Notes under the pieces: generated by a model | Databases searched by the model: none | Told to the model about the DNA's origin: nothing | Seen by the model: only the letters and a program-made list of their open reading frames with translations | Made by a program: the position numbers and the translations under genes | From: an uncultured Holosporaceae bacterium | Lineage (GTDB): Bacteria > Pseudomonadota > Alphaproteobacteria > UBA3830 > CASESI01 | Length of the DNA stretch: 64,000 bases | Direction: 5' to 3' | Assembly (NCBI GenBank): GCA_949290705.1 | Contig: CASESI010000014.1 | Location: 37,802 to 101,801 of the forward strand | Shown here: positions 11,201 through 61,815 of the stretch, in pieces | Numbering within the stretch: position 1 is the first letter of the stretch | Layout of the letters: every line of letters begins with the position of its first letter

Positions 11201-11626
11201 ACCATAATACAATTTCAATCCATCTTCCAATGAATTACGCATTTTTTTAGCTTTGAGTATACGATTATTTATTTTTTTAATTTCCTCTATATCTTTTTTA
11301 GGAATCAAAAACTTGTAATTTTGTTGTAATGCGGAATTATCATCTATATTTGCATTTCGATGAGAAACAATATTTTCATTTTTTGTTGTTATTTTGTTGG
11401 GTAATATTTTTATATTCTTTATATCATAATGCTTGAGATTAATTGTATATCTATATTTGTACTTCTGGTTATGTATTCTCCTGATTTTTTTATGAATTCT
11501 TTTTATCAAGTACTTTGTTTTAACTATCAAATCCTGTAATTGTTTTTTTTCAAAATCGAACGATTGTGTATATGCTGGACGAATTAGCATTAAAACTACT
11601 AGAATTATTACAGATATACACTTCAT
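2267..11626 (-). CDS. giant (3119 aa) secreted/surface coiled-coil repeat protein, function unknown
   Basis: Uninterrupted 9.36-kb ORF. N-terminus MKCISVIILVVLMLIRPAYTQ is signal-peptide-like. Long K/E/N/Q-rich heptad-like tracts, internal repeats and Gly/Ala hydrophobic segments. No catalytic motif recognised. Confidence 0.8.
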   Translation of the reverse strand: MKCISVIILVVLMLIRPAYTQSFDFEKKQLQDLIVKTKYLIKRIHKKIRRIHNQKYKYRYTINLKHYDIKNIKILPNKITTKNENIVSHRNANIDDNSALQQNYKFLIPKKDIEEIKKINNRILKAKKMRNSLEDGLKLYYGDDWRKKIYQNKEHVKNLQALLNIEYKNAQRIKVFLISNMIDNKNARNYYTIRYSKLLHDVELSRQQLDLALNEEQRNVGKIRYLQAVLKNRKYDVETFEQNFTSMVINNDPLGTTATEISKIQQRINQLNKEKSEIQKQIEDEQNKENPNQNKLEELNERLQNTKSEIVKNEATLTEIQNTGVIQENNDNADLESERKKELITKLNEAVEKEDIVRNDLVSTVIQDPNNDGKIDAAKQKFDEAKSEREKVADEVKKQYNDPFNNHNEGDSSQNNIPADSQNVNNPLDIFKKNLNFGKESPQETLNGSSKNDRPQNTSIPNSSGTESGYVNGNAKGSLTGTNGSKSIFDKAKEALSGLFRTKTSQKRLSQKLDDITPNNSKGQQGRGPNIIDKFATHSSSIPQSSTPKSESWLQGIKNFFSGGRGDTNSRQRTRQQKKLQKLEDQLKIFKVQEQIKEVQKKLKDQKTEVTPTVINAPEQENPKRETQYNDVAEQILQEKANQLDHDTSDTQNQAEAPYEEKADGPIVTTYKMSKVNNPFVTMDSKITTLDDIVDSNLEDIGVLQNDLDDLNNLKRRIMELESLLKNITDPSEREELQKDIDTAKRIYEDKESALKNKHGVSSGADVGEALTEKIDKKQGVVDKAVIAKAGIVGGPAAEQSARESIAKRDEENDKQKKKNLKDEIKRCEAIISNPKASNAERTKAIENKSRAELEKVKLNLKDKKAKIDSIKSELSNPDTTNERKQILLFDLENAIKEYNKLAEQYGQEPIQNTLAEEKIINDAGNSVKGLEEKSSPKDTESSTNSKTIDGNNQRSNTPVLLKDVEQEITAKAEMEKTQEEIDTKKKEIAETRAEQGRIESDINRSKSKIADIESDMKKLSNLEKRIMDCDTSNKSGQKKLLELTKQQMALQGTLAEKYSCDPSDLKNEMKSQLKVEKNNQKKLQNQRRTTSKTLNQLEQELSDMTTAQMAAVRTNSKVTKSTTHDQQEPITSHQIETNDTSKSNPTEIQEQESSDKQQKKRIVSLSDVEEEAKSTEKEDSKSNSSKVTLDDVEKTASEKSSKWDTVKEKLSNAGSAISTAAINVGAGISNAASSTKNFVTNNASTIATATGIAATVVAGAAVAGGVAAVASNWDDIKEKANDVKDAIGDNVSDIKSSIGEKITTVKDIVGGKVSDIKDSFTEKANSVKDVISDKVDDIKENVSESVNNVKEKLSDIKDNISDKVNDVKESISDKVEAAKNTVNNIKDIVSDKVNTVKEALSPIANAVKTVASSTAGLAGATLGLAGTAIATGSNLLASGADALNDKLSGNTNNTNAEELKNTSNNNVGGALLNLAGSALGLTGTAMAAGSGLFANITDGLSDKINALTNKINGTEVVNNDMLNPNTISSNMHNASGSNVKLGSKEIAQNADNIKQQLTETAKSILANKELTGRLEFQTDSKGNRINVAALLGTVAAGGVLSAADIDILNDPKIKSAIEVLENEYNVLGLVGKGIADVLNEGTKTVNDIKSEIETKAFLNSSSMDDSAKYKGQLKSIDFTIDGKTISMFDIVSKIADGSATPEEMKALASNNEALKIINQLDFNSGTNVGNFINNAFSKNGIEPSEEIYKAPTITENVGDNIVNKDGIQEEKVNIVEKDVSKVIKQYSDKADKILNTSVIGDCLKEIDKTQPEGVKITDLLTRISNGEKILQTEINVVIKDPGVINSIKDMEKLYGVSVIGLLTEYASKYDLVEPAKHATLANEKITLTEDYKTFGDISLKNILTCIEEGRVSDINPEHLQKLLDGTSNGLKSKVQEIEVKYDVKIIDALEQASSKLLEEKISNAKNTAVSISKSEIQEKLKEENTKIQSRNNEILDQYNKKVEEQKSVLKNVSGSINNILENHADLFDSVGYSSANKSALEDLSSMLDKLQRETDQDKREKLTSELHSFMEENHNLLVAVNQEFPGTVNMTLIKMNSTFEKEPILEQLKTEDEIEKEIRENSSPYDLNITVGKLNDDKVQIGVQESTLNDTKELLSAINDDKELTHQQEEKLKNLLSNKSELKVIEHSTGSAIIDHLENKYNQVKKLESEKQEFYKHINEIKEKETESTNSINKSFGYGKNGNQLFEKIKNIDFESSNRVNIKNLMEKIANSETVTKKEVDMILSDKELVEKIKNVEKEENVKIIDKLEKSVNNGVNYSISAKAKNINDKLTIEMSNSYFGGIDVKDIISKIENGEFSKINHDDLKILLTPASEGGLKDQLSAVEKELNINITDVIENANGIKISEKVEEFKTEKSKYQSLMKNDTEESSKHLERLENSPYNTQNILDKLSVEPKVNSYSENTKRMIEENNETKSRNKVKKKEYENAKDLQKKFVKSTVINLQSISEDTNNFTKDESSKLSEIVDALKELNDNGDIDDAKGKIGEFITTSPELVEKVEAIYGDKLGFENLYSNLNEIKEPEYEELHQIENLQSEGYDKDLLETKEKIKDIFEAEHSGKELSEEQKDFVKDLYQNNRELITEIENKYDVKIGDYFSYINSRIDENWNSKNINEANNSKPREAKFIDTTKKSIENISNQAKTLVTHEFTHDALKSLEKKYPTKISISKVLDKIKNGEEISKEVVNNIFADSTITSEMHNIENKTGVKILDMISEYASEYTTKPIRESAKSDLIKVSDGALHVYIGDTKIKDLLSDIASGNDISKYKEYIEELNSNEAKQKGLQLLETECGIDIKSKLEFVSNEIKTKELHVLHNNVQSAISSINKTAIDELLNSDHADINISKEEAVSVAEALNAIENGESLEKYKEAIRPLYESGRLESLDEKLGLPISECMKYVSMVDENTYRGNKVIVSEQIGMSDLVGKEKISRNDMLNRKENGIQENSSHPINNMITQFTDYINEKMELLNNKMKEVDKKIATFEEMKNSMQQEEIHTAEKDGGHTNIAVNEEEIKDERIPTEEAILGKEHKVDIHFEEKNGSSHEAARHGFKTNVKTQTFSQAS
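7430..7810 (-). repeat. about 12 tandem 33-nt (11-aa) coding repeats inside the giant gene
   Basis: Protein reads DDIKEKANDVK DAIGDNVSDIK SSIGEKITTVK DIVGGKVSDIK DSFTEKANSVK DVISDKVDDIK ENVSESVNNVK and so on. The DNA shows a recurring ttatcagaNat...tccttaatat pattern. Confidence 0.8.
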
Positions 11627-29500: not shown

Positions 29501-29683
29501 ATGAAATTTTCGAATGAATCGATAGAAATGTTGCTAGATTTAGTAGAAATAAAAATTAGTAGTTTGTTTGTATATGATAAAGACGACTCCAAAGAATTAA
29601 AAAAATTGAAAAAATGCAGAAGTGAGTTGTGTAAACAAATACTTGAAAATCAAAAAAAAGACGAAAAAGTAGAAACAAATTAG
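29501..29683 (+). CDS. small hypothetical protein (60 aa)
   Basis: ATG at 29501 is preceded by AAGGA. Charged helical sequence with no recognised family. The track start at 29429 is upstream and less convincing. Confidence 0.3.
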   Translation: MKFSNESIEMLLDLVEIKISSLFVYDKDDSKELKKLKKCRSELCKQILENQKKDEKVETN

Positions 29684-30660
29684 GCACTCACAATATTCGA
29701 AACAGATGCTATATAATTCTGATTTGAGGCGGCTTTATGCTTGAAATCGTTAAAAAATGTGATTTTATTCACATCAACAAGGTATTCAGCATCCTTTATA
29801 TACACGTATTTAACACCACAACTTAATTCAATAGTATCTTCAACGAAGTCATTTATTCTACCAGCATACTTGGATACTTCATATAACGGAATAGTTAATA
29901 TCTTCGTACCTTCAATTAACTTTTTAAACAATTCAGGATCAATATAATTTCTGATAGCATTATACTTAGAAGAAATGTAACTCTTGTCATAAACAAAAAC
30001 CGCTGAAATCTCATTATACTGGTTTATAAAAATAAAACTTCCATTTTCATCCAACGCATAGTACTCTATTACGTTGTTTTCTCGTACCATATCATCAACT
30101 AAATCTCTGACATCATCTTTTACATAAATATTACAATTAAAAGTCTTTCCTAATGTTACATGACGATTTGTAATCCCCTCGAATAGCAACCTTTTACCTT
30201 TTAGAATACTGTTTTCCATAGAAGACGTAAAATCAAAATCACTTTTCCTTATAAAATCATCGATAAGGCCATCCTTCATCATGGATACAGCCAAAGCATT
30301 AGTTGCAATCCCTGTCAACATAACTTTGTGTAAATCAATTGATCTTAATCTTTGAAAAAATTCTACTCCACTTATTATCGGCATTTCATAATCAGAAATT
30401 ACGGTAGTAACAGTAACAAATCGTAAAGGATTATACACCTGACTTAATGTTGAAAAATATACATTATCTTCATCTAGACTTATAAAAAAATCGTTATCAT
30501 CCAAATCACTAACACTCCTTAAATGATTTACAGCTAGCGTAGGATTTTCATAAGGAATATAATAACAATCCCTCATATTGACCAACGCCATCGTAGATTT
30601 CAAAAAATTAACGTTATCATCAACCAACACCAAAGTCGTTGGATGCATAAATGTATACAT
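29680..30660 (-). CDS. response regulator (receiver domain) with uncharacterised C-terminal domain
   Basis: REC hallmarks LVLVDDN (acidic pair), VISDYEMPIISGVEF (phospho-Asp), KVMLTG and DDFIRKS (Lys). A ~190-aa C-terminal part has no recognised motif. Confidence 0.6.
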   Translation of the reverse strand: MYTFMHPTTLVLVDDNVNFLKSTMALVNMRDCYYIPYENPTLAVNHLRSVSDLDDNDFFISLDEDNVYFSTLSQVYNPLRFVTVTTVISDYEMPIISGVEFFQRLRSIDLHKVMLTGIATNALAVSMMKDGLIDDFIRKSDFDFTSSMENSILKGKRLLFEGITNRHVTLGKTFNCNIYVKDDVRDLVDDMVRENNVIEYYALDENGSFIFINQYNEISAVFVYDKSYISSKYNAIRNYIDPELFKKLIEGTKILTIPLYEVSKYAGRINDFVEDTIELSCGVKYVYIKDAEYLVDVNKITFFNDFKHKAASNQNYIASVSNIVSA

Positions 30661-30746: not shown

Positions 30747-32366
<1,620 letters not shown>

Positions 32367-32723
32367 TTAATTACAACCTTTACAAGAACAACAAGAGCCA
32401 GGACATCCAATAATCTCAGAATTACTGTAATCCACGCCAAGAATATCAGACTGTTTCATAAGTAAATATTCTTCTCCATCCAACTTGATTTCTGTACCAC
32501 CCCATTTTGTGAAAATTACCTTATCACCAACATTTACATCATTTGGAACCAATTTTCCGTCATTATCTTTTGCACCATCTCCAACAGAAACCACAATTCC
32601 TGACTGTGGTTTTTCTTTTGCTGTTTCTGGAATTATAATCCCACCATTTGTTACACTGCTATTTTCTATCTTCTTTACCAAAATACCATCACGCAACGGT
32701 TTAAACTTTTCTACCTCGGACAT
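32367..32723 (-). CDS. groS: co-chaperonin GroES with Cys-rich C-terminal extension
   Basis: MSEVEKFKPLRDGILVKK...GGIIIPETAKEKPQSG...GDKVIFTKWGGTEIK is canonical GroES. The true ATG at 32721-32723 was verified. It has an extra ~22-aa tail ending GCPGSCCSCKGCN. Confidence 0.9.
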   Translation of the reverse strand: MSEVEKFKPLRDGILVKKIENSSVTNGGIIIPETAKEKPQSGIVVSVGDGAKDNDGKLVPNDVNVGDKVIFTKWGGTEIKLDGEEYLLMKQSDILGVDYSNSEIIGCPGSCCSCKGCN

Positions 32724-32831
32724 TACAAGACTCCATAAAATTAAACTCATTAAATTATAACATATCAAAAAATGAACGTGAATTCTTTTAATGATAAATA
32801 CACAGTAAATAACTATTGATAATTTTTACAA

Positions 32832-32860: not shown

Positions 32861-33066
32861 CTGCAGATAATATGACGTAATTGGGTATAAAATACTTTTT
32901 GTTGCCGAATTGAGTTTTTCTATTCGCTAAAAAATGTAATATGTAACGATTTTAAATGAAAAGTTACGAAAAAATTAATTTTTTTCGAAAGTTTTACTGT
33001 TTTATTTGCATTGTTACTAATTTTATATTATTCTTAACAACGTATTATGAAAGTTGCATAAAAAAT

Positions 33067-33504
33067 ATGGAAAAAGATAATGAATATAGCATAAATGCTT
33101 ATATCGGTCTCAAGTTGAAGAATAGGAGGACCGAATTGGGATTCACACAACAAGAACTTGGTGACACTTTGGGGATTTCATTTCAGCAGATCCAAAAGTA
33201 TGAGAAGGGAGTTAATAAAATTAATGCTTCCAATCTATTCGAATTAGCAAAAGTGTTAAAAGTACCTGTCTCATATTTTTTTGACGGATATGATTCATTC
33301 TCTGGCACCGTTATACTAACTATGAACGAAGTTAACTCGACTTTTGCACACGAGGATGTATTTTCTTCAATCGAAACACTTAATCTACTGAATTATTATT
33401 ACAAACTTAACAACACGAAATTAAGAAAAAAGATACTGGATTTGGTAAGGTTCATAGCTGTCGGTGAACAACAAGATGGCGAATCTGATATCGATACAAA
33501 ATAA
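33067..33504 (+). CDS. XRE-family HTH transcriptional regulator
   Basis: IGLKLKNRRTELGFTQQELGDTLGISFQQIQKYEKGVNKINASNLFELAKVLKVPVSYFF. The ATG at 33067 fits better than the hydrophobic upstream extension in the track ORF. Confidence 0.65.
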   Translation: MEKDNEYSINAYIGLKLKNRRTELGFTQQELGDTLGISFQQIQKYEKGVNKINASNLFELAKVLKVPVSYFFDGYDSFSGTVILTMNEVNSTFAHEDVFSSIETLNLLNYYYKLNNTKLRKKILDLVRFIAVGEQQDGESDIDTK

Positions 33505-58464: not shown

Positions 58465-60130
58465 CTGAGGATCTTTGTCACCCAGGCATTTCGCGCAAAA
58501 GCTATTCGAAAATTTGACTGCCTCATCCATGCTATGCGTGAGTTTTCCGTACAAATTCTCGTGCTTGTAATCTATGTGGTCCAAATACTGGTACGTATAA
58601 TCCGTAAGGTTCGTAAGCACCACCGGAATCCCGGATTTCTGGACCACCTGGCGAATCAATCGCGCACCAGTGGCATCAATCAGCGGTACATGTTCGAAAT
58701 TCAGGATCAGCACACGTTCATCACCGACACGTTTCAAAACGTTATCCACCGCAGGCGCAACCCAGAAAAACAAGGGACCATTGATATTCACACAATGCAC
58801 GCCATACTTCGAAGGGTCACCCCCCTCAAACCGGTTCGAAATCTCGGAAATATTAATCTCCGTCTTTTCAAGCAACCTGTGCACAAAAAGTAACATTGCC
58901 GTAATCACGCCAATCTCAACCGCCACCGTGATATCCACCACAACCGTCAAAATGAAGGTCACGAGAAACACCAACGAATCACTCTTTGACGCCCTGAAAA
59001 TATACGTACATTGGCGGAAACCAATCATATTCCAAGCAATCGTCAACAGCATCCCGGCAAGACACGCAAGCGGAATAAACTTCATATAATCCATGAAAAA
59101 GCACATAAAGCTTAACACGAACAACGACTGAAAAATTCCAGACAGCGGCGAAACGGCACCTGCCTTAATATTTGCAGCAGTCCTTGCAAGTGCCCCAGTC
59201 GATGGCACGCCACCAAACAGCGCAGCCACAATATTCGCCATTCCTTGCCCAATCAACTCAGCATCTGATTTATGCTTTGTCAACGTCAAGCCATCCGCAA
59301 TCGTCGCACACAGCAACGACTCTATCCCCGACAAAAAAGCAATCGTCAGGGCAGACGGCAGCAAGGTCTTTACCAATTTAAAATTCACCTCTGGTAAAGA
59401 AAAGTGCAACCCATTCCATTTTAAATCTGCAAATCGTGTCCCAATTGTATCAAAATATTCAGGGAACCAAAACGTTGCACCAACACCAATCGCAATCGCG
59501 ATCAGAAATCTTGGGGTAGTTTGGCCTAAATTTTTGTAATAAAAAAATCATGCCAGCCAAACCAAAGGCTAAGACGAAAGTTGCAACAGACATATCGTCA
59601 ATATGTTGTCACACGAATTGAATTCGGCCCCAAAAACCCCCCGAATTATCCTCAGCAACAATGCCAAACAGGTCATGTAATTGCGTGGACAAAAGTGTCA
59701 CACCAATCCCGGCTGTAAAACCCGCCGTCACAGTGTACGGCATATATTGGATTATTTTTCCAATCCTTAAAAAACCTGCTATCATCAAAAAACAGCCAGC
59801 CATCAAGCTTGCAACCAACAAGCCATTGACCCCATGCACAGCGACAATGTTAAATATAATCACAACAAAAGCGCCCGTAGGTCCACCAATCTGGAACTTG
59901 CATCCACCAAAAATAGATGTGAATGCCCCAGCAACAACCGCGGTAATAAGCCCCTTTTCCGGGGACACACCAGATGCAATCGCCAACGCCATCGCAAGTG
60001 GAAAAGAAATGATCGCCACAATAAAACCGGCATATAAATCCTTTGCAATATTTTGCACAGTATACTTTTCAGGATCCATTATTTGTGGTCTGATCGCACA
60101 AAAATACTCCCTCGCTTTATCTAAACGCAT
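58453..60130 (-). pseudogene. SulP-family anion transporter with STAS domain, disrupted
   Basis: N-terminal fragment 59609..60130 (GFIVAIISFPLAMALAIASGV...) and C-terminal fragment 58453..59409 (TM region plus a STAS-like tail). They are joined only by reading 59,410-59,608 in two other frames: TGA at 59609-59611 and a frame change near 59,500-59,520. Confidence 0.8.
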
Positions 60131-60261: not shown

Positions 60262-61815
60262 TTATAGGTTTATTTTCGAGGCAATTAAATCCTGGAACTT
60301 TCTAACCCCATAAATCTTTATAAATGAACCAATTTTTGGTCCTTCTTTACTTCCGAATAACACCTCGTAAATGCAGGCAAACCAAGCCTTTAAGTTATCT
60401 TCAAAGTATTTTTTTCCAACCTCAAAAACAACATTTTGCAGATCCGCCGCAGTCTCACGATCATCGCATGCATCAAGTTCAGTAAACAAATCCTTTAACG
60501 CATTCGATTCAACATCGGTCGGGGCGCGGAAACTCTTTGTCGGCTTCACAAATTTTTGATAATACTTCACACTCGATTCGACAAGCTCCTCCAGCATTTT
60601 ATCACGCCTGTAATTCGGGTCGAAATACTTCTCCAAAAATCCCCACATAATATCGCTATTCTCGGCCGAAGCAGCACTTGCGAGATTGATCAGCAAATTA
60701 TACGTAATATCAAAAGTCTTCACAGGCACAACACCGTGATGAATATGCCAACAAGGATTATCCTTTGACAGGTTCGTTTCATATCGATCGAGATTTGAAA
60801 GGTATTCATCCACCTGGCGCGGAATCACGTTAAACGCCAATTTCTTCGCAGCCTTTGGAGTTTGGAACATGTAATTTGCCAAGCTTTCTTTCGGTGCAAA
60901 ATCCAACCAATCATCAAGCGAAATGCCGTTTCCTTTCGATTTCGAAATTTTCTTACCATCGTTATCCAAAAACAATTCGTAAAAGAAAGTCTCTGGCCCT
61001 TCGGATCCCAAAACGCGACATATTTTTTTCGACAATTTTGCAGAATCGATCAAATCCTTACCAAACATCTCGTAATCCACTTTCAGTACATGCCAACGCA
61101 TTGCCCAATCGACCTTCCATTGAAGCTTACAATTTCCGCCAGTGACAGGCACCTCGACAAATTTTCCTTCGTGATCCTTAAACACAACCGTTCCAGCATC
61201 CACGTCGTATTTTTCCATCGCAACCTGCATCACCTCGTTCGTTACAGGGTGAATCGGCAAGAACGGACTGTAGGTCGAGGACCGCTCCTCCCTTAATGAC
61301 GGTAACATGATCTCGAGAATTTCCTCGTGATGCTTTAAGATTTTCAAAAGCGCCTCATCAAAAAAGCCACTTTGATACATCGCCGTTGAACTTATGAATT
61401 GGTAATCAAACCCAAACTGATCAAGGAATTCCCGCAGTTTGCTGTTGTTATGCTCACCAAAACTTTGATGACATCCAAACGGATCAGGCACCGATGTCAG
61501 CGGACGATTCAGGTTTGCGGCAAGCAATTCCTTATTCGGAACGTTGTCCGGCACCTTACGAAGGCCATCCATATCATCCGAAAACGAGATCAAACGAGTC
61601 TTGCGGCCAGGGTACAGATACTCAAACGCGCGCCTCACAAACGTTGTCCGCAAATTTTCACCAAACGTGCCGATGTGCGGAAGCCCAGACGGACCATACC
61701 CAGTCTCGAACGTTATCACGTCACTTTTGCGGTTTTGCAACTTTCTCGCCTCCTCAAAAGGCCAAGATTTTAAATTTTCATTATCACAATTATTTTTAAT
61801 TTCACTATCAAACAT
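60262..61815 (-). CDS. lysS: lysine--tRNA ligase, class I
   Basis: SWPFEEARKL...ETGYGPSGLPHIGTFGE (class I LysRS HIGH region) and KISKSKGNG (KMSKS). 517 aa. Confidence 0.9.
   Translation of the reverse strand: MFDSEIKNNCDNENLKSWPFEEARKLQNRKSDVITFETGYGPSGLPHIGTFGENLRTTFVRRAFEYLYPGRKTRLISFSDDMDGLRKVPDNVPNKELLAANLNRPLTSVPDPFGCHQSFGEHNNSKLREFLDQFGFDYQFISSTAMYQSGFFDEALLKILKHHEEILEIMLPSLREERSSTYSPFLPIHPVTNEVMQVAMEKYDVDAGTVVFKDHEGKFVEVPVTGGNCKLQWKVDWAMRWHVLKVDYEMFGKDLIDSAKLSKKICRVLGSEGPETFFYELFLDNDGKKISKSKGNGISLDDWLDFAPKESLANYMFQTPKAAKKLAFNVIPRQVDEYLSNLDRYETNLSKDNPCWHIHHGVVPVKTFDITYNLLINLASAASAENSDIMWGFLEKYFDPNYRRDKMLEELVESSVKYYQKFVKPTKSFRAPTDVESNALKDLFTELDACDDRETAADLQNVVFEVGKKYFEDNLKAWFACIYEVLFGSKEGPKIGSFIKIYGVRKFQDLIASKINL

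Follow-up and report, generated by a model that had tools for sequence, protein, structure and literature searches.

The chaperonin operon analysed here raises the question of why the co-chaperonin GroES of an alphaproteobacterium should end in five closely spaced cysteines, and whether this end is real, is shared by relatives and has a function. By the window we mean the whole stretch of DNA that was analysed, with its length of 64,000 nucleotides.

A GroES with a cysteine cluster at its end

The features of the operon in the window are the following:

32754–32782, minus strand: putative sigma-70-like promoter TTCACG-17-(TG)TATAAT, 5' of groES, by consensus match only
32367–32723, minus strand: groES, 118 amino acids plus TAA stop; Cpn10 domain at residues 6–97 with the mobile loop intact (…NGGIIIPETAKEKPQ)
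32406–32432, minus strand: linker DYSNSEIIG, residues 98–106, from alignments and codon alignment
32370–32405, minus strand: cysteine cluster CPGSCCSCKGCN, residues 107–118, from invariant columns, codon variation and rarity
32367–32369, minus strand: TAA stop codon of groES, its position shared across 18 contigs from independent assemblies
30747–32351, minus strand: groEL, 534 amino acids, 15 nt after the groES stop, with a GGAGG ribosome-binding site

Read on the minus strand, groES runs in frame through ...MKQSDILGV into DYSNSEIIGCPGSCCSCKGCN and then to TAA, and the protein begins with MSEVEKFKPL at the ATG at 32723. A mechanical list of open reading frames gives a TTG at 32768 as the start, which we rejected in favour of the ATG because of a GGAG ribosome-binding site, the start of the homologues (all begin with MSE[VL][ED]KF) and the position of the promoter between the two candidate starts. 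A CIRCE operator was not found within the 64-kb window. Pfam Cpn10 (PF00166) matches the protein with 114.3 bits against a cut-off of 21.1, and both this match and the alignments with PDB GroES chains, including 1AON, cover residues 6–97 only, so that residues 98–118 are an extension of 21 amino acids with five cysteines. The mobile loop (…TNGGIIIPETAKEKPQ) is conserved in the aligned relatives. Judged by its Cpn10 profile, its mobile loop and its partnership with groEL the window protein is a GroES, and it is genuine, in-frame and of the alphaproteobacterial type.

A preliminary description of this DNA had already reported an in-frame C-terminal extension with five cysteines. We could confirm it with its coordinates and its codon reading, the reported 32367–32435 corresponding to V97–N118 plus the stop codon. 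The position of the stop codon also holds as far as assemblies can show: the identical 118-residue protein with the same neighbours recurs in independent ENA and Logan assemblies, on 18 contigs in all, which excludes a sequencing artefact, and ten near-identical variants in the same 90% cluster of GroES all have the same end. The assumption that a canonical GroES stops at about 95 amino acids stood for most GroES from GTDB genomes, 50 of 59 ending three residues past the ILG motif, but did not stand in the sense that extensions as such would be rare in the class. The other nine continue for 4–12 residues past ILG, none of them with a cysteine, and Ala/Lys-rich tails (for example EGTSTAARKAA) are present on many alphaproteobacterial GroES. 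As such tails are common, the unusual part is the cysteine cluster and not the extension itself.

Of the 18,695 residues encoded by the 46 window ORFs taken as genes, 1.08% are cysteine, and five cysteines within 12 residues would be expected by chance about 0.002 times in the window. The second-densest stretch of 12 residues in the window has three cysteines and belongs to a radical-SAM enzyme. No cysteine-rich C-terminus other than that of GroES was found among the real ORFs of the window, and among the called genes of the fetched clade loci only GroES and GroEL have one; the sole other match to a cysteine-rich end in these loci is a 62-residue ORF in L098, which matches no called gene.

Concatenated tails used as a tail-only query yielded 70 word-sharing candidates among 5.8 billion proteins, and all matches with E ≤ 10 were Cpn10 proteins of the window's clade, with no Helicobacter protein at E ≤ 10. 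A scan of GTDB genomes with the GroES protein, which was dominated by generic GroES patterns, gave a best match of 64% identity and no tail in any genome. In three loci whose matches run past residue 97 (L047, L019 and L070), non-coding sequence follows an ordinary GroES. A profile of the C-terminal 45 amino acids found only ordinary GroES fragments among 50%-identity representatives, in which the window clade is collapsed into tail-less representatives, and a scan of metagenome contigs for MKQxD[IV]LG[IV]DY returned a single contig that was already in the set.

Conservation and variants of the tail

The preliminary description had left it to related taxa to decide whether the tail is conserved, and homology search, cluster look-up and alignments gave a strongly positive answer. 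The pattern C-x3-C-x2-C-K-G-C together with a fifth cysteine is kept in 18 of 18 distinct full-length tailed sequences, of which those aligned are 67–93% identical to the window GroES. The invariant aligned columns are D, C, C, C, K, G and C; in window numbering C107, C111, C114, K115, G116 and C117 are invariant and S110 is nearly so, while the fifth cysteine lies at position 112 or 113, between the second and the third invariant one. Between core and cluster there is a linker of 5–10 residues with variable sequence except for a leading D-Y-S/T, and linker and core vary among the lineages while the cysteines stay.

At the codon level, four of the six invariant positions, namely the third and fourth invariant cysteine, the lysine and the glycine, show synonymous variation (GGT/GGA/GGG for G, AAA/AAG for K and TGT/TGC for the two cysteines), and serine positions beside invariant residues switch the codon family. 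The synonymous changes at invariant residues point to purifying selection on the amino acids and not to recent common descent. These data bear on the idea that the extension is a read-through, a frameshift or a functionless lineage tail. Non-functional C-terminal tails of various lengths do exist on other alphaproteobacterial GroES, but the identical protein recurs on contigs from independent assemblies, the cysteines are invariant with synonymous codon changes although the cores differ by up to 33%, and the chance expectation given above is very small. We therefore regard a neutral or artefactual origin as extremely improbable.

Beyond the window the tail comes in several forms:

Subgroup 1 (window, L098): DYSN[SA]EI[IVLF]GC[PS][GS]SCC[SG]CKGCN
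P0005 lineage (P0005, L089, L104): DYSKSSSVNSCSGSCCSCKGC
Subgroup 2 (L087, L092, L095 and others): DY[ST]xxC(x3-4)C[SD]CCKGCC
Subgroup 3, a deeper branch (L101, 4023–4379): …ACASASCGSCPSGCSC (…SCGSCPSGCSC)
Subgroup 3 (L102, 4613–4963): …SCGTCPEGCHC, with one histidine

The two subgroup 3 tails come from the contigs of P0151 and P0152, the most distant of the metagenomic GroELs considered (69–70% identical), whose GroES have 118 and 116 amino acids and end in …ILGIVLDGACASASCGSCPSGCSC and …ILGIVNEGTSASCGTCPEGCHC. Subgroup 2 GroES have an additional, terminal sixth cysteine. In subgroup 3 the spacings are C-x2-C-x3-C-x-C and C-x4-C-x2-C-x3-C-x-C, so that the number of cysteines is kept while their spacing drifts, as in metallothioneins. 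CC pairs occur once in the window tail, twice in subgroup 2 (CCKGCC) and not at all in subgroup 3. Thus, the tail is clade-wide and has at least three motif variants, with changes of spacing being tolerated but not the loss of cysteines. The GroELs of the tail carriers form one group apart from named Alphaproteobacteria in a neighbour-joining tree, which was calculated without bootstrap and in which low-GC attraction is possible, and judging from these sequences the tail probably goes back to the ancestor of a lineage in which the GroELs now differ by about 30%.

The spacing of the invariant cysteines also suggests another function, in which the four would ligate a [4Fe-4S] cluster or a single, rubredoxin-like iron and GroES would act as cluster carrier, scaffold or redox partner. 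The idea has its appeal for subgroups 1 and 2, as their invariant C-x3-C-x2-C-x2-C is also the spacing of the ferredoxin maquette Ac-KLCEGGCIACGACGGW and of the minimal peptides CGGGCGGCGGC, which with their 11–16 residues assemble [4Fe4S] in vitro (PMC10946529, Table 1; PMC6374738), and the glycine before the last cysteine is found in the maquette peptides as well. Maquettes are synthetic peptides, whereas natural ferredoxins use CxxCxxCxxxCP in a folded domain, and compared with this motif the order of spacings in the tail is reversed (x3, x2, x2). An iron–sulfur site would moreover leave the fifth and sixth cysteines as well as a CCC end of GroEL (see below) unexplained, a cluster fully exposed to solvent on a disordered tail would be labile, the tail has no Fer4-type Pfam match, and the operon is not linked to isc, suf or nif genes. 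Because subgroup 3, with its other spacings, does not keep the maquette arrangement, we consider iron–sulfur ligation unlikely.

The partner GroEL and the genomic neighbourhood

The window GroEL has an acidic C-terminus without (GGM)n repeats. Its closest named relatives are GroELs from Azospirillum and Rhizobium (68–70%), and metagenomic GroELs with 70–100% rank above them. The same repeats are missing from every GroEL of the clade, although P0151 ends in …HPGMM, and in the sister branch the GroELs paired with subgroup 2 GroES end in …D(K/H)…DDKCCCSK. GroELs with the end …DDKCCCSK were located at:

L087, 8363–9982
L092, 6399–8015
L094, 1703–3319
L096, 1508–3124
L097, 653–2269

As far as the sequences tell, this CCC end is a second, independent addition of cysteines to the same machine. 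The C-terminus of GroEL sits at the floor of the folding cavity, and the tail classes described for it are Gly-Met-rich, His-rich, Gln-rich and pattern-free (PMC11978752); an end of the KCCCSK type is not among them. GroELs without a Gly-Met tail are usually additional, specialised paralogues, and bacteria with several chaperonins reportedly keep a Gly-Met-tailed copy (PMC11978752). Within the 64-kb window there is no second groES or groEL. If the genomes also encode a canonical groESL, the cysteine-tailed operon would be a specialised paralogue; if they have no canonical copy, the essential chaperonin runs with a cysteine-tailed lid and a GroEL without GGM repeats. Contigs with groES of the P0005 type from three samples (L089, L090 and L091) all break at codon 292 of groEL, in a conserved segment, which could reflect a collision with other GroEL genes during assembly or, alternatively, hint at paralogues. 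The cysteine in …TTEC… of GroEL was dropped as a special feature, as E. coli GroEL has the same cysteine (C519).

Cysteines on both partners could also form a redox element, meaning a sacrificial or reversible thiol buffer or an oxidative switch that is possibly loaded with zinc like the Cys4 centre of Hsp33. The cysteines of the tail are vicinal or closely spaced, and the CCC end of the sister-branch GroEL would add thiols inside the cage. In HspA, the GroES of Helicobacter pylori, the four cysteines form the disulfides C94–C111 and C95–C112, which give its domain B a lasso-like shape (PMC5116745), and Zn(Cys)4 sites in chaperones are known oxidant sensors (PMC6021785). Against such a role, thioredoxin, peroxiredoxin or other redox genes are not linked to the operon, the tail, with its invariant K-G and with at least four cysteines always kept, resembles a chelating site more than a simple thiol buffer, and nothing ties the activity of GroES to the state of the tail; a redox element is thus conceivable, if rather improbable. 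With Hsp33 and DnaJ the tail shares the setting of a Cys4 zinc site on a chaperone, that of Hsp33 being C-terminal and a redox switch, but their sites are located in folded domains (CxC…CxxC and CxxCxGxG repeats, respectively) and have no homology to the tail.

The neighbours of the operon differ between the branches. In subgroup 1 it lies beside a gene for an XRE-type HTH protein, alr and mlaE; subgroup 2 and the P0005 lineage have dnaG and rpoD there, and subgroup 3 has rsmI, lipB and a gene of the PBP5 type. Neither a maturase, a transferase nor another accessory gene is conserved beside the operon across the branches, and in no branch is it linked to genes for metal transport, metalloenzyme maturation or metal regulation. 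In the window the XRE-type HTH gene (32956–33504, plus strand) is divergent from groES, a position that is conserved in subgroup 1 (L001–L006, L098–L100), and its product is a possible local regulator. Directly 3' of groEL lies the gene for a 326-residue protein with a faint resemblance to receiver domains (FixJ-like, 32 bits; 29680–30660, minus strand), whose position is likewise conserved in subgroup 1.

According to a further explanation, the cysteines would serve as a handle for covalent modification or localisation, be it S-acylation or prenylation (if the protein gets into a eukaryotic host), a RiPP-like thioether or tethering to a membrane or a partner. C-terminal cysteine motifs such as CC and CxC are lipidation signals in eukaryotes, and moonlighting GroES and GroEL are known from cell surfaces. 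Domain B of HspA mediates binding to TLR4 (PMC5116745). No modifying enzyme is conserved beside the operon, though, and the window looks like that of a motile bacterium with cell wall and fatty-acid synthesis and not of an obligate intracellular one, so that a handle of this kind is very unlikely. Two specific forms were rejected, a CaaX/Rab-type lipidation signal as the register of the last cysteine varies (…GCN, …GCC, …GC, …CSC and …CHC), and a RiPP-like precursor as no maturase is linked.

The window itself is ordinary chromosome with a GC content of about 31%, encoding flagellar hook proteins, mur genes, acetyl-CoA carboxylase, aminoacyl-tRNA synthetases, transporters and Hsp20. Among its other features, a SulP/DauA-family transporter is spread over two ORFs (58456–59409 and 59612–60130, both minus strand, covering profile positions 272–559 and 13–172) and probably represents a disrupted gene. 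The stretch from 56 to 60 kb has a GC content of 0.41 compared to about 0.31 and adjoins a tRNA-Arg(TCT) at 56780–56856. An ORF of 3119 amino acids (2267–11626, minus strand) belongs to no family and shows only a sub-threshold apolipoprotein-like (coiled-coil) match, and the long opposite-strand ORFs inside it are probably spurious. The lysyl-tRNA synthetase (60262–61815, minus strand) is of class I (PF01921), the less common form in bacteria. A text search for the sample accessions returned nothing on the habitat. Contig labels (such as XIAO16-1 and LIUQ22-1) and the JGI sample identifiers hint at an animal gut, and our conclusions do not lean on this hint.

A putative metal-binding appendage and its relation to HspA

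The conservation pattern points to a function that needs at least four clustered thiols, tolerates changes of spacing, is tied to the chaperonin and requires no dedicated neighbour gene. A metal-binding appendage fits all four properties, although redox buffering, Fe-S binding or other tasks of clustered thiols would suit the sequences as well. With moderate confidence we propose by analogy that the GroES tail is a flexible, outward-pointing and thiolate-rich metal-binding appendage, functionally similar to domain B of HspA. As the tail is clade-wide, has motif variants and is accompanied by the CCC end of GroEL, we find a generic thiolate-rich function that belongs to the chaperonin more plausible than one rigid site.

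In an AF2 model of the monomer, the β-barrel core of GroES is confident, and residues 102–118 have a pLDDT below 50 and no secondary structure. The metal-free tail is accordingly predicted to be disordered, which is expected for a tail that folds only around its ligand and gives no positive information. At the rim of GroES the C-terminus of one subunit is near the N-terminus of its neighbour, and Cpn20, the tandem GroES of plants, fits this geometry with its two head-to-tail matches to the query. For H. pylori GroES, SAXS revealed seven radial protrusions that were assigned to the C-terminal extensions (PMC5116745).

In the model that we propose, each GroES subunit would bear five thiols in a cluster of 12 residues, joined to the core by a flexible spacer of about nine. 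If the arrangement is as in Helicobacter HspA, the tail would stand out radially at the rim of the dome formed by the heptamer, where it would hinder neither the mobile loops that dock to GroEL nor the folding cavity. The thiolates could chelate soft metal ions, either in one tetrathiolate site per tail or in multinuclear clusters shared between tails, with Zn(II), Cu(I), Ni(II), Fe, Cd, As(III) and Bi(III) as candidates. Abundant and stress-induced, GroES would then become a cytosolic metal buffer, store or donor, and its metallothionein-like appendage might fulfil the role of HspA domain B using cysteines alone. What we infer here are the metal binding, the outward geometry, which metal is bound and what the tail does in the cell.

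The only tail of this type on a GroES in the literature searched is that of HspA, as the preliminary description had stated, and its extension has been described as "absent from non-Helicobacter bacteria" (PMC4671568). Domain B of HspA serves in nickel sequestration and hydrogenase maturation, with a Cys-Cys motif as metal anchoring site (PMC4671568), and binds two Ni per monomer (PMC5116745). Like HspA, the window GroES has a complete Cpn10 domain plus a C-terminal extension with vicinal cysteines (about 20–27 residues), is encoded in a groES-groEL operon and would form a heptamer with seven tails. The two differ in composition, domain B having eight histidines and four cysteines (PMC5116745) and the window tail five cysteines and no histidine. 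Two vicinal pairs (CC…CC) frame the HspA domain; of such pairs the window tail has one, subgroup 2 two and subgroup 3 none. No similarity of the tail to domain B could be detected, and Pfam searches with E values up to 1 returned only Cpn10 and neither a metallothionein nor a ferredoxin (Fer4) match. They differ as well in the host, which is an alphaproteobacterium and not a member of the Campylobacterota, and a nickel enzyme context was not seen. Given this host the tail arose independently of HspA; a common descent with the Helicobacter tail was not found, core and partner GroEL both being alphaproteobacterial. The window GroES may work like HspA, yet it fails as a member of the HspA family.

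In the literature searched for cysteine-rich GroES or GroEL tails, only work on Helicobacter and on mycobacteria came up. In mycobacterial GroEL1 the C-terminal tail is replaced by a His-rich sequence that binds metal and is linked to copper handling (PMC10170517; bioRxiv 10.1101/766162). The sister-branch GroEL resembles it in having a different C-terminal tail, KCCCSK, instead of (GGM)n, but in GroEL1 the ligands are histidines and sit on the GroEL of a dispensable paralogue, whereas here they are cysteines and mainly on GroES. A further parallel exists to the bacterial metallothioneins SmtA/BmtA and MymT, which likewise combine dense cysteines in CxC, CC and CxxC motifs with a disordered apo form and a variable spacing at a fixed count. 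Metallothioneins are free-standing small proteins with 6–9 or more cysteines, in contrast to the tail as a 12-residue appendage on an essential-type chaperone.

A more far-reaching version would be a "metallochaperonin", in which the cysteines at the GroES rim and those in the cavity of the sister-branch GroEL (KCCCSK, 21 thiols per ring) hold metal ions or Fe-S clusters and pass them to encapsulated, folding clients, in what is maybe the only groESL of the lineage. We regard this as quite unlikely. If true, the insertion of cofactors would be coupled to chaperonin-assisted folding, and if the operon is the sole groESL of the lineage, it would be an exception to the reported rule on GroEL paralogues and their Gly-Met tails. 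Independent of this, a clade without (GGM)n raises a question on GroEL tails in general, as these repeats have been reported to be functionally important. The 12-residue motif with its natural variants (CPGSCCSCKGCN, CSTSCSCCKGCC and SCGSCPSGCSC) offers a clean system for asking which metal or redox task goes with GroES/GroEL.

In the literature the HspA tail is explained by the unusual nickel need of a pathogen and stands as the sole metal-binding tail of a co-chaperonin. An independent, all-cysteine tail across a deep alphaproteobacterial lineage changes this HspA-only picture, and together with the cysteine end of GroEL its clade-wide occurrence suggests that fitting the abundant chaperonin with ligand-rich tails is a solution that evolution has found repeatedly.
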